Numbered from the stretch's first letter, positions 1 to 5,517 are shown. The stretch: DNA of 8,452 bases from Candidatus Wukongarchaeum yapensis (GCA_016840425.1 JAEOSI010000086.1:1-8452), one strand, 5' to 3'. Notes: a model not told the origin generated them from the letters alone. Numbers and translations are program-made.

Positions 1-236
1 GAAGCGACTTCTGTAAGGGCTTCTTCCTTTTTTTCTTTCTCTTCACGTATTGTAGTGCTTAGTTTTGAAGATTTTTGATTTAAAAAATCTCTTTTTTTAG
101 CCCATTCTTCTGCTTCTTTTAAAGCATTATCCCGTAGTTTTACCAACTCTTCAACTTTTTTTTCAATTAGTTTCTCCTCATCCTCGTAAATTGTTTTTAC
201 ACCAGCTCCTGCATTACCACTTTCCAAATATTTCAC
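1..236 (-). CDS. N-terminal part (about 78 aa; runs off the window edge) of a charged coiled-coil protein, possibly the archaeal COG1340-like coiled-coil family
   Basis: Manual translation from GTG at 236 (in-frame TAA at 240-242 bounds it upstream): MKYLESGNAGAGVKTIYEDEEKLIEKKVEELVKLRDNALKEAEEWAKKRDFLNQKSSKLSTTIREEKEKKEEALTEVA, with no stop to the edge. E/K-rich and heptad-like. The KRDxLN motif resembles archaeal coiled-coil proteins; the family call is from recall only. Not in the ORF track. Confidence 0.65.
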   Translation of the reverse strand, partial: MKYLESGNAGAGVKTIYEDEEKLIEKKVEELVKLRDNALKEAEEWAKKRDFLNQKSSKLSTTIREEKEKKEEALTEVA

Positions 237-477
237 CTTTTACCTTGTTTTATTATCTATCTCCTATTGTTTTCTTTTTTAAGAATTTTATAGTTAAGGG
301 TTGATTTTAAAAAAATTTAAGCCTATGGGAAGTAAAAATAGAAATTGTGATATGATAGAAGTTTTTATTTTATTTTATTTTCAATAATCTCTTTTTTAAA
401 AATCTTACTTGGATAACACCTATGGTTAAATTGGCTCGCGTGGTTATATTTTTTTGTCACGCCATCTATAGATTAGA

Positions 478-487
478 TATATTAAAA
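478..487 (+). promoter_or_regulatory. Candidate TATA box for the 515..1744 gene
   Basis: TATATTAAAA lies about 30 nt upstream of the GTG start, the spacing expected for a short or leaderless archaeal transcript. The AT-rich context weakens the call. Confidence 0.35.
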
Positions 488-514
488 CATTACTATTGCT
501 CCTAAAATCAAGAA

Positions 515-1744
515 GTGGGGAAAAAGGTGTTAGATATATTGTTAAAGCAAAGGTCTCAAAAAAACGTTTATCGTGCCTTGATTGCTCCCGTTTCTGAAGA
601 GAGCGTGACTTTCCTTAGAGGGTTCTTTGAAAATTTAATTGAGCTTGGATTTGATAAAAAATTATGCAATTATCTTAAAAGCTTTATCTTGTTGTTGGCT
701 ACGGCTAGTGCATATAAAAAAAACGGTAGGGAAGAAGGAGGGGTGGTGTTTGAGGATATAGTTACCGGCGTTTATTGTACGTTGTATTTATTAACTTCGG
801 GGAATGTTGAAGAGATTCTGCGAGAAAAAGCTTTTCAGTTTGGTCTGCCTAAGTTTCGAACTATTTTGGATCTTGGAGAGATTTCTTTTGTGACTTTTTC
901 TAAGCCTGCAAAGGCGCGCATGATTTTCCTTGAAGAACAGCTCTCAGATTTTCTTAAAGGATGTAAGTTTTCGAAAGAAGATATGGAAAATATTGTGAGG
1001 AGAGTTGTTAGAAGTATGGGTATTTTAGCTATAACTTTGGCTAAAAACATGAGTAGAAATATTGTTGAAGAGTCGGATGTGTTAACTGGTAGGGAGATTA
1101 TACATTTTCTTTTGTTTAAGTTAACACCGTTGGAGCTTAGATGTTTGTATGGACTTTACACTTTGAGTAAAGAAGAAGCTTTGAAAATTTTAATTGGGAA
1201 CGAGCCTTGTTTAATTCCTTTAATATCAGGAGAAAAAATTTTCGGGCAGGATGAGAAGGCAGTAAGATTAAGTTTTCCTTATTTTAAGGCTTTTGGAACA
1301 AGCTTAAACCTTCTTATTTCAGCGTTAGAAATGATATTAAAGATGGAAAAATTATCTGATGATTGTGGTATTAATGGGAAGGATGAATCTGTAAAAAAAG
1401 CGCTTGAAAAGTTAATGTTTCTCCTTGATCGATCTGAGAAAGAAGTCACGGATTTTTTAAGAGATCCTGTAAATGATCTTAAGCCGGAAATTGAGGCAGC
1501 TAAAACCGTTAAAAGTTTTAAGAAACGTTTTGAAGAATTTTTGCTTATAAAGAGCGGTCGGGAAAATTATCTCTTAAAATATGCGAATATTGCAACCCAT
1601 TTTTCAAGCTTTTTAACCCTTATAGCCTTTGCTAAAGCAAAAAAAGACCCAAAACAAAAAAAAGTTAAAAAAGAACACGTACTATTAGCTTTTATAACCT
1701 TAACAGAGTATATAGATTCTAAAATAAACCAGTCCTCTCCATAA
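515..1744 (+). CDS. Hypothetical alpha-helical protein (409 aa) with four degenerate ~100-aa repeats resembling the AAA+ lid / histone-fold C-terminal motif
   Basis: Long ORF with a GTG start (alternative GTG at 527; first in-frame ATG only at codon 136). Repeat ends: EDIVTGVYCTLYLL (aa 80-93), SDVLTGREIIHFLL (187-200), ESVKKALEKLMFLL (291-304), EHVLLAFITLTEYI (387-400). No Walker A/B. Coding status is confident; the fold assignment is inference. Confidence 0.85.
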   Translation: MGKKVLDILLKQRSQKNVYRALIAPVSEESVTFLRGFFENLIELGFDKKLCNYLKSFILLLATASAYKKNGREEGGVVFEDIVTGVYCTLYLLTSGNVEEILREKAFQFGLPKFRTILDLGEISFVTFSKPAKARMIFLEEQLSDFLKGCKFSKEDMENIVRRVVRSMGILAITLAKNMSRNIVEESDVLTGREIIHFLLFKLTPLELRCLYGLYTLSKEEALKILIGNEPCLIPLISGEKIFGQDEKAVRLSFPYFKAFGTSLNLLISALEMILKMEKLSDDCGINGKDESVKKALEKLMFLLDRSEKEVTDFLRDPVNDLKPEIEAAKTVKSFKKRFEEFLLIKSGRENYLLKYANIATHFSSFLTLIAFAKAKKDPKQKKVKKEHVLLAFITLTEYIDSKINQSSP

Positions 1745-1755
1745 TGGCTGACAAT

Positions 1756-2529
1756 TCACTCATCAGTTATGTAGTTCATTCCCCCACTCCAAATCCTAGA
1801 AAGTTCTCCATAAAGAATGTCTAGACCCTCCCATGTTTTGTTTGACACTGGTATTGGTTGTGCATAGGCCGTGTAAACGTTTTCTATGACGCTTAAAAGT
1901 TCCTCACTTGTGATCCTCAGTAGGCCTTTTGTTCCCTCTTCTAAAGCCGTTATGAGGAGTTCAGGCGATTCGCCCCAAGAAATAATCCGGTCAATATCCT
2001 CATCAAGCAACAAGTCACTCTTTGATAAAACATGGAGATTAGGAATATTAAACCTGCATTGCACGCTTAAAGAAAGGAATAGAACTGAGATATATCCTGA
2101 AGGATCTTTTGATAGAAAAGGATCGATTAAAAAAATTAAAGCAGATTTTTCCGAGGATAGATCATTGACTATTATGGGACCTGTTTCTCTAAAAGCGAAA
2201 AGTTCCATTTGACCTGGCGTGTCAACAAGAACAATGTCTGCGTTAAAGTCATCAATCTCCTTTTTAATATCAAACACATGGGTGCCTATAAGGTCTGTAC
2301 TCGCCACTAAAGCAGCATTAGGTCCTAGTTCGTAGTCAAGCATTACTTTCTCATAATCTATCCAATCTCTTACATCGATCTCGGTAGAATAAGGAACAAC
2401 TCGGACGCCTGGATCTAAGTTTACAGCTATAACGTCTAGATCTATTTGTTGGAGATATTCACGAAAAGCCGTGGTTAAAGCTGTTTTCCCTGAACCAGCA
2501 GTACCTATTATAAAAGCGAAATAAGTCAA
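1756..2529 (-). CDS. GPN-loop GTPase (archaeal ATP/GTP-binding protein, PRK13768-like)
   Basis: P-loop GTAGSGKT, NLDPG, signature GPN (LGPNAAL), G3 DTPGQ, G4-like SKSD. The TTG start is needed because no in-frame ATG lies between the upstream TAA (2560-2562) and the P-loop. Confidence 0.95.
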   Translation of the reverse strand: MTYFAFIIGTAGSGKTALTTAFREYLQQIDLDVIAVNLDPGVRVVPYSTEIDVRDWIDYEKVMLDYELGPNAALVASTDLIGTHVFDIKKEIDDFNADIVLVDTPGQMELFAFRETGPIIVNDLSSEKSALIFLIDPFLSKDPSGYISVLFLSLSVQCRFNIPNLHVLSKSDLLLDEDIDRIISWGESPELLITALEEGTKGLLRITSEELLSVIENVYTAYAQPIPVSNKTWEGLDILYGELSRIWSGGMNYITDE

Positions 2530-2706
2530 TTTTATCCAAACTCCGCCCGATAAAAAGGCTTATTTAATCTTTAGGAATTTTATTGTTATATCATATAAGA
2601 TGATTAAGAATGTGGATAATAAATAAACGAGGATTGGGAGATTGATTACCTAAAAACACAAAAACTAAACTAAAAGTTTAAATTTTTAATAAGTGGCTTT
2701 TTGGTT

Positions 2707-4911: not shown

Positions 4912-4917
4912 GTTAAA

Positions 4918-5517
4918 CTGGCGTTTTTTGGTGGAGCAACGGCTGTTGGAATAGCATTTAAAGAGGGAGTCGTATTAGCTGCTGAAAAAAGATATACACT
5001 AGGTCACCTTGTCCAAAGTAAAAGCGCTAAAAAAGTGTTCAAAATAAACGAATATTTGGGAGTGGCTTGTGCTGGCCTTATATCGGATATGACCATTCTC
5101 GCAAAACTAATAGGAGCCCAAGCAAGCCTCTTCATGTTAGACAACGAAAGACAACTACCCGTAGAAGCTGCTGCAAAATTGATGAGTAATATAATGTTTA
5201 ACCGTAGGTTTTTCCCTTACTTTACCGAAGTAATAATCGGGGGCTTCGAACCGGAAGGTTCAAAGATCTTTGTTCTTGATCCTATAGGCTCTTTGATACC
5301 CGACAGGTATACTACTACGGGGTCTGGAGCTCCCATAGCCATGGGTGTTCTAGAAGATGAATATAATGAAGATTTATCCTTAAAAGAGGCAAAGGATTTG
5401 GCTGTAAGGGCTATGATTGCAGCCTTAAAGCGTGATTCCCAAAGTGGTAATGGTGTGGATTTGTTAATCATAGATAAAAAGGGAGTAAAAGAAGAATACA
5501 TAAAGTTTGAATCATGA
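4918..5517 (+). CDS. psmB: 20S proteasome beta subunit, predicted non-catalytic (Thr1 replaced by Ala); proposed CTG start, 199 aa
   Basis: The frame stays open upstream of the track's GTG 5035 and encodes the conserved N-terminal strands: (M)AFFGG-ATAVGIAFKEGVVLAAEKRYTLGHLVQSKSAKKVF. Later motifs are GVACAGLISD, TGSG and RDSQSGNG. An in-frame TGA lies at 4909-4911, with no ATG/GTG/TTG between it and 5035. Confidence 0.93.
   Translation: MAFFGGATAVGIAFKEGVVLAAEKRYTLGHLVQSKSAKKVFKINEYLGVACAGLISDMTILAKLIGAQASLFMLDNERQLPVEAAAKLMSNIMFNRRFFPYFTEVIIGGFEPEGSKIFVLDPIGSLIPDRYTTTGSGAPIAMGVLEDEYNEDLSLKEAKDLAVRAMIAALKRDSQSGNGVDLLIIDKKGVKEEYIKFES

Follow-up and report, generated by a model that had tools for sequence, protein, structure and literature searches.

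The window analysed here, a stretch of 8,452 nucleotides of DNA from Candidatus Wukongarchaeum yapensis (JAEOSI010000086.1:1-8452), carries on its plus strand (515-1744) an open reading frame (ORF) whose product appears to be built of AAA+ lids alone. Family profiles and a structure model show window 527-1741 to encode a predicted soluble, all-helical, non-enzymatic protein with four tandem modules in one chain. These modules would have arisen by internal duplication of an MCM-type AAA+ C-domain, or 'lid'; units 1, 2 and 4 each seem to keep two helix-strand-helix motifs folded back via a short hinge, and unit 3 seems to have decayed and to carry a disordered insert. The four bundles are predicted to pack into one defined, rigid body (predicted template modelling score, pTM, 0.83). 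By analogy with related domains, and with a probability of roughly 60%, the protein is an ATP-independent scaffold for binding, made of an array of lids. The strand-bridge and loop faces of its bundles, the side that all characterised relatives of the motif use, may hold the partner, for which the candidates are nucleic acid or a protein, for example a neighbouring GTPase or an AAA+ ring of the MCM clade.

The AAA+ lid is known almost exclusively as a part attached to a P-loop motor. The fold is known, and a protein made of tandem lids only is not described in the libraries and literature searched; a literature search returned no paper on free-standing tandem lids in archaea. A four-lids-only protein present across several Asgard classes would mean that the lid module has been put to use again as a unit in its own right. 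The Asgard gene set also gains a widely conserved family, covered by no Pfam or NCBIfam model, whose syntenic block contains many eukaryote-like genes. One family with significant profile similarity to both MCM lids and archaeal histones bears on the proposal that histones derive from lids (PMC1847821). Asgard archaea are the archaeal relatives of eukaryotes, and a lid-to-histone intermediate, if true, would be specific to them.

Internal repeats and predicted fold

The ORF comprises 409 codons from GTG 515, with its stop codon at 1742-1744. Because all close homologues begin (MLNILL...) four codons past GTG 515, at GTG 527, the latter is the probable true start, and the product would then have 405 amino acids (aa). 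Residue numbers count from GTG 527, except where GTG 515 is named.

A first-pass annotation, made from the sequence alone, had described an orphan protein of four tandem repeats resembling AAA+ lids or histone folds, each closed by an alignable motif. The ORF and its four segments lie where that annotation placed them, and the 14-aa motif closing each segment (aa 80-93, 187-200, 291-304 and 387-400 from GTG 515) coincides with the last predicted helix of its unit (residues 75-90, 182-198, 286-300 and 382-400, numbered from GTG 527). Of the helix caps proposed for the four repeats, VSEES, FSKPA and KPEIEA (three of four) fall on the short strand and helix start of units 1, 2 and 4. The repetition itself does not rise above chance in the single protein. 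Self-BLAST found no repeat, pairwise Smith-Waterman alignment of the four segments gave z scores of at most 2 against shuffles, and the four proposed end motifs score 53, a value equalled by 14 of 60 shuffled proteins; even the best motif quadruple, scoring 67, is reached by three of the 60.

The repeats become significant in units 1, 2 and 4 once profiles are compared. The family alignment of 41 sequences (A4), on which the profile, motif and conservation counts are based, was cut into four slices, U1 to U4, and compared with hhalign alongside twelve reversed-profile controls, all of which gave an expect value (E) of at least 0.056. U1 matches U2 over 78 columns with a probability of 96.6% (E 5.4e-10), U1 matches U4 at 91.8% (E 7.5e-7) and U2 matches U4 at 87% (E 4e-6). 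U3 matches weakly and only through the last 35 columns, its C-terminal half (U2 against U3, E 1e-3), and is not significantly similar to U1 or U4, in keeping with the earlier remark that the third repeat is the weakest. At the profile level the protein clearly reads as three good copies of one unit plus one decayed copy, unit 3.

AlphaFold2 run on A4, a check that the annotation had proposed, gave a confident model with two helix-strand-helix motifs per unit (predicted local distance difference test, pLDDT, 81.9; pTM as above); an earlier run on six near-identical sequences reached a pLDDT of 37 and was unusable. The A4 model is all-helical; its strands span no more than one or two residues, and it lacks a beta-sheet core. 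Units 1, 2 and 4 follow the order helix, short strand, helix, hinge, helix, short strand, helix, and since two helix-strand-helix motifs define the AAA+ C-domain (PMC1847821), each of these three modelled units answers to that definition.

Unit 1 (aa 1-95; window 527-811, plus strand, as are all segments of the protein) comprises helix 2-17, a strand at 22, helix 24-39, the hinge, helix 44-65, a strand at 73 and helix 75-90, at a pLDDT of about 90, and in the model it is a lid-type double helix-strand-helix bundle. A linker (aa 96-112; 812-862) with one short helix leads to unit 2 (aa 113-200; 863-1126), the best-preserved lid, with helix 113-121, strand 122-123, helix 126-145, the hinge, helix 150-174, strand 179-180 and helix 182-198; it carries the SR...D motif that had been likened to histones. 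The decayed unit 3 (aa 201-303; 1127-1435) is drawn with helices 201-214, 216-223, 259-274 and 286-300 and has low-confidence residues at 227-256 and 277-284. The first of these stretches is an insert (window 1205-1294) with a pLDDT below 50 and gap-rich alignment columns, and is probably disordered and variable in length. Unit 4 (aa 304-405; 1436-1741) comprises helix 304-312, strand 319-320, helix 322-371, strand 379-380 and helix 382-400. DSSP draws 322-371 as one helix, in the middle of which lies the nearly invariant G344, where pLDDT dips.

Positions conserved in at least 75% of members are mostly L, F and Y, together with D77, R131, D184 and G344 and with Y189, R193 and K386, at which last three the window's residues differ from the family consensus. 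Since conservation falls almost entirely on core hydrophobics and on the motif's Arg/Asp pairs, the protein would be non-catalytic. No match to the Pfam AAA core was found in the window's protein or the 41 members, and, as first noted for the single protein, Walker A and B motifs are lacking, in all 41 members, barring one chance hhhhDD string. Having no P-loop core, the lid-repeat protein as modelled cannot be an ATPase.

It is very improbable that the protein is instead a decayed enzyme, a pseudo-ATPase or pseudo-helicase whose motifs were lost. What suggests it is a borderline match: an exhaustive phmmer scan of 1.8 billion representatives returned the protein's own cluster and, as the sole match outside the family, a 116-aa metagenomic fragment of a DEAD-box protein (P0007; library-wide E 9e-4, 46% identity over 46 aa). 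The similarity covers window 767-916 (aa 85-130 from GTG 515), takes in the linker after unit 1 and sets FSKP opposite the DEAD of motif II. It is limited to the linker between U1 and U2 in the Hod-type subfamily, a linker that differs in the Thor, Odin and other subfamilies, and the model contains neither a RecA nor a P-loop sheet; the missing Walker motifs likewise speak against a former enzyme. Kinship to DEAD-box proteins was set aside, as the similarity spans 46 aa of a fragment, with no PF00270 match and no alpha/beta core. The resemblance is probably fortuitous, whether by chance or local.

Kinship to AAA+ lids and to histones

Structure comparisons lead mostly to lids, namely those of MCM, ORC/Cdc6, RuvBL, Rpt, Lon and chelatases. 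By far the nearest structures are MCM lids, with 20-23% identity to those of MCM4, and unit 4 aligns to the compact MCM8/9 lid over 74 residues. A search independent of Foldseek lists the lids of Cdc6/Orc1, ORC1, Rpt3, RuvBL1, BchI, Lon and FtsH, the Rpt3 lid being superposed over 57 of 57 aa at 1.9 Å. Whole-chain comparison yields less: the AlphaFold database (AFDB) Swiss-Prot set holds no whole-chain counterpart, and in the ESM Atlas the template modelling (TM) score of the fold search is at most 0.27.

For comparison at the profile level, genome searches supplied the sequences for three alignments: 26 of Asgard MCM lids, 32 of histones and 49 of classic AAA lids; reversed controls gave E values of at least 0.077. 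U1 matches the Asgard MCM lids over 80 columns, the full length of the lid (E 9.7e-5), which bears out the impression that the first repeat recalls an MCM lid, and no unit matches the classic AAA_lid_3 lids. Among Pfam models, PF17856 (TIP49_C, an AAA+ lid) matches 5 of the 41 members (best E 1.4e-6), in the f20 subfamily and over a segment that corresponds to where unit 2 ends; in one of these (L044) it scores 26.6 bits, the curated cut-off being 24.5. The MCM_lid model PF17855 does not reach its cut-off in any of the 41, with a best E of 0.13 in one member.

The family shares with the MCM lid the GR/SR...D signature ahead of the last helix, but the MCM lid is a single copy behind a P-loop ATPase core and comes with sensor 2, whereas here four stand in a row with neither core nor nucleotide site. 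The match to the TIP49/RuvBL lid covers 23 residues, and the RuvBL ATPase and its OB insert have no counterpart here. The profile repeats, the model, the lid-dominated structure matches, the PF17856 match in one subfamily and the absence of P-loop motifs together uphold the architecture first proposed, AAA+-lid repeats free of an ATPase.

Set against the lid-array scaffold are the failure of Foldseek to find any match in the PDB at E up to 1e-3, the lack of a match between the window's own protein and the lid models of Pfam, which one subfamily alone attains, and the old synteny block of unrelated housekeeping genes around the gene, which gives no clear functional link. The weak Foldseek list from the PDB mixes single-chain H2A-H2B chimeras with MCM subunits.

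The helix-strand-helix motif is common to the histone fold and the AAA+ C-domain and has a shared origin in both (PMC1847821), as the first-pass annotation correctly stated. The two differ in the hinge: C-domains possess it and form closed four-helix bundles, while histones lack it, having a continuous alpha2 helix and an obligate handshake. Histone folds have been proposed to arise from the lid module by loss of the hinge and domain swapping (PMC1847821). In the AlphaFold2 model the central helices of units 1 and 2 are interrupted by a four-residue hinge (24-39 and 44-65 in unit 1, 126-145 and 150-174 in unit 2), and because of this break both are read as lid-type by the published distinction. 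From the model we conclude that the units are lid-type bundles and not handshake histone folds, unit 4 being the one uncertainty.

Similarity to histones is nonetheless detectable. U2 matches the 32 Asgard histones with a probability of 80% (E 1.5e-5) over 29 columns confined to alpha2C-L2-alpha3, so that the likeness first seen between repeat 2 and the tail of archaeal histones stands at the level of the motif, and U1 matches them over 59 columns (E 5.7e-4). Real likenesses to MCM lids and to histones, both at the profile level, are what the published common origin predicts (PMC1847821).

These matches also favour a histone-like DNA binder, in which the units would pair histone-style within one chain as a pseudo-tetramer, loops and strand bridges would contact the DNA backbone, and the protein would serve chromatin or DNA architecture. 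The continuous 50-aa central helix drawn in unit 4 fits this possibility, as do the isoelectric point (pI) of the window protein, 8.9, and the net charge of unit 4, +6; feature neighbours in the ESM Atlas include CBFD_NFYB_HMF clusters (0.81 and 0.76), a lead only. It is unlikely all the same. The hinge-broken central helices of units 1 and 2 correspond to the C-domain state, no histone model of Pfam (PF00808 or PF00125) matches any of the 41 members at E up to 1, and pI ranges across the family from 5.0 to 9.7, with many acidic members. On the same three grounds the earlier idea of a single-chain multimer of handshake histone folds is not supported. Moreover, MCM lids rank above histones structurally, one 77-aa unit superposes on parts of both halves of a histone doublet, as a bundle that is not swapped should, and the genome already has two canonical histone genes. 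These lie in tandem at G000:C17:4742-5182 on the minus strand, as 73-aa frames with PF00808 matches at E 1e-13 and 8e-13.

Known one-chain histone doublets (HMk of M. kandleri, 1f1e; Marseilleviridae, 7n8n; SOS, 1q9c) have a continuous central helix and handshake interleaving, in contrast to the closed, hinged bundles of units 1 and 2 here, in a family that has no histone Pfam match and is not consistently basic. There is an outside chance that the family is a living lid-to-histone intermediate, in which the last unit, and perhaps the third, has opened at the hinge and pairs histone-style, giving an Asgard-specific pseudo-oligomer that binds or wraps DNA, or else that it is an accessory of the string of Arf-like GTPase, Roadblock and Sec23/24-like genes found in Thor-type genomes.

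The role of binding platform favoured for the lid array draws on analogy with histones, Clp N-domains and the N-domain of the DNA polymerase epsilon B-subunit (PMC1847821; PMC2528186). The helix-strand-helix motif's beta-bridges have a binding role elsewhere, contacting DNA on histones and ClpS on Clp N-domains (PMC1847821). Like the protein described here, the Clp/Hsp100 N-domain is an ATPase-independent module that repeats the motif, and it binds an adaptor at the beta-bridge (PMC1847821); unlike it, the Clp domain arranges two four-helix repeats in antiparallel and sits on the Clp ATPase, and it was not recovered in the searches made here. The N-terminal domain of the polymerase epsilon B-subunit is a lid-type domain used outside an ATPase (PMC2528186), and its structure (2v6z) is among the matches of the Foldseek-independent search. 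It differs in being a single copy on a phosphoesterase/OB protein and bears no detectable sequence relation to the family.

A family of Asgard archaea

Taken singly, the window protein has no usable match in Pfam, NCBIfam or the PDB sequences, a PDB search with the family profile gave nothing usable, and a word-indexed homologue search found only five relatives, at 85-87% identity. The family came to light through six-frame profile searches of genomes. A first round gave two weak matches (E about 1e-5), from another family of the phylum and in open frames of equal length; these align to the query end to end at about 20% identity. The profile enlarged with the two finds a match in 105 of the 400 Asgard genomes sampled, and the label 'orphan' thus no longer applies. 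Full-length matches are collinear, have open frames some 400 aa long and mostly occur once in a genome; a few weak ones are partial or contain stop codons.

By taxonomic family, matches occur in 82 of 88 genomes of f6, 11 of 12 of f25, 3 of 3 of f20 and 2 of 4 of f3, as well as in f1, f2, f5 and f27. The profile search found no convincing member in f9 (1 of 135, weak, partial and with stop codons), f4 (0 of 31) or f12 (0 of 19). The contig from the window's own genus is labelled Candidatus Hodarchaeota, f6-type matches are labelled Thorarchaeota and Hermodarchaeota, and others Promethearchaeota. A closed 1.4-Mb genome, which we infer to be of Odin type, also has a member that the family profile matches over its full length with an E of about 1e-20. 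As far as sequence searches extended, the family appears confined to Asgard archaea. A Foldseek search of the AFDB clusters returned only an unnamed 400-aa protein (E 9e-9), which is probably a member too. Longer, fused forms were looked for and none was found, which is weak evidence.

That ORF 515-1744 is a real gene under purifying selection is indicated by these collinear homologues, mostly single in their genomes, and by a ratio of nonsynonymous to synonymous substitution rates (dN/dS) of 0.27 against the same-genus orthologue (86% aa identity). Near-identical DNA (at least 0.62 of sampled words) to window 300-2600 occurs in 20 metagenome runs from 13 studies, whose sources are marine sediment, seawater, mangrove and marsh; none of the runs listed is an RNA run.

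Gene neighbourhood and candidate partners

The gene is followed by a convergent gene for a GPN-loop GTPase (PF03029; 1756-2529, minus strand), 11 nucleotides from its stop codon, and is preceded by a divergent gene (3-236, minus strand) of which the contig end leaves only the N-terminal piece. The counterpart of the latter in related contigs has 294-297 aa and is recorded as DUF7121. Yet a six-frame search with PF23435 at E 1e-5 gave no match in the window's genome or in the same-genus relative (L002:8812-9696), which suggests a very divergent copy. The literature search found no paper on DUF7121, and a paper on Asgard GTPases and Roadblock proteins is silent on the lid-repeat gene.

Context was surveyed at 13 wide-flank loci from divergent lineages, two of which are the same same-genus record, leaving 12 distinct places. 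Across them the lid-repeat gene stays in position within a block of UppS, NYN, DUF7121, the lid-repeat gene, acetyl-CoA synthetase beta, GPN-loop GTPase and CinA. Outside Thor-type genomes, 12 of the 13 loci (11 of the 12 places) have the GPN gene as a direct neighbour or at a distance of one or two genes, usually convergent. In three Thor-type loci the lid-repeat gene comes last in a series on one strand, after Roadblock, Roadblock, Arf/Ras-like GTPase and UppS, with a Sec23/24-like gene, another Roadblock and SMC just upstream. Roadblock triplets with UppS-NYN precede the gene in two other lineages, and an Arf/Ras/Roc GTPase lies 3 kb upstream in the own-genus contig.

Such neighbours raise the possibility that the protein belongs to a GTPase system, in which it would act on or regulate either the GPN-loop GTPase or the Arf-like GTPase/Roadblock module found ahead of its gene in Thor-type genomes, as effector or regulator. 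Foldseek rows over the whole chain to SOS, a Ras exchange factor whose N-terminus is a double histone fold, are weak but point the same way. The probability of this is low. The GPN gene is convergent and not co-transcribed, the block also contains SMC, UppS, NYN, acetyl-CoA synthetase beta and CinA, which fits inherited order rather than an operon, the family is much less widespread than either GPN GTPases or DUF7121, and the SOS rows have probabilities of 0.12-0.18 and TM scores of 0.12-0.15. A predicted complex with the neighbouring GPN-loop GTPase scored 0.01, which gives no verdict. Phyletic co-occurrence with DUF7121 was rejected as a lead, DUF7121 being present in 328 of the 400 genomes. 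Because unrelated housekeeping genes are mixed in it, the block is read as inherited gene order and is at most a weak functional hint.

A conserved block of Asgard synteny, L135:479-12937 (also L134, L136, L038 and L042), has in order SMC, Roadblock, Sec23/24-like, Roadblock, a Roadblock/MAPKK1_Int-like gene, Arf/Ras-like GTPase, UppS, the lid-repeat gene and acetyl-CoA synthetase beta and alpha. Its Sec23/24-like protein, 544 aa long, combines zinc-finger, trunk and beta-sandwich domains. The lid-repeat gene of Thor-type loci abuts or overlaps, at its 3' end, the convergent ACD-beta gene.

A free lid array might also dock on an MCM-clade AAA+ ring by mimicking lid contacts, acting as loader, chaperone or brake. 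The closeness of the units to MCM lids in structure, the full-length match of U1 to Asgard MCM lids and the presence of MCM in all searched relatives but one agree with such a partnership. We consider it quite improbable, since fold similarity reflects descent and not interaction, the conserved neighbourhood includes no replication gene, and the large MCM-bearing families f9, f4 and f12 gave no convincing member. The MCM genes have a peculiarity of their own: some Asgard genomes have MCM open frames of about 700 aa, but in many the frames measure 1,100-1,785 aa (loci L048-L073), with 1,709 aa in the window's own genome (G000:C152:12277-12534), which suggests inteins or other large insertions.

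The window as a whole is AT-rich (G+C about 36%), and the rest of it is archaeal housekeeping: besides the GPN-loop GTPase, it encodes a CinA-like protein, a polyprenyl synthase, a proteasome beta subunit, DUF1152, HypE and ribosomal protein S8e. The proteasome beta gene (4912-5517, plus strand) is called from GTG 5035, and the Pfam match of the called ORF starts at profile position 40. With no ATG, GTG or TTG ahead, the frame is open upstream of GTG 5035 and encodes the conserved N-terminus (...GGATAVGI...).
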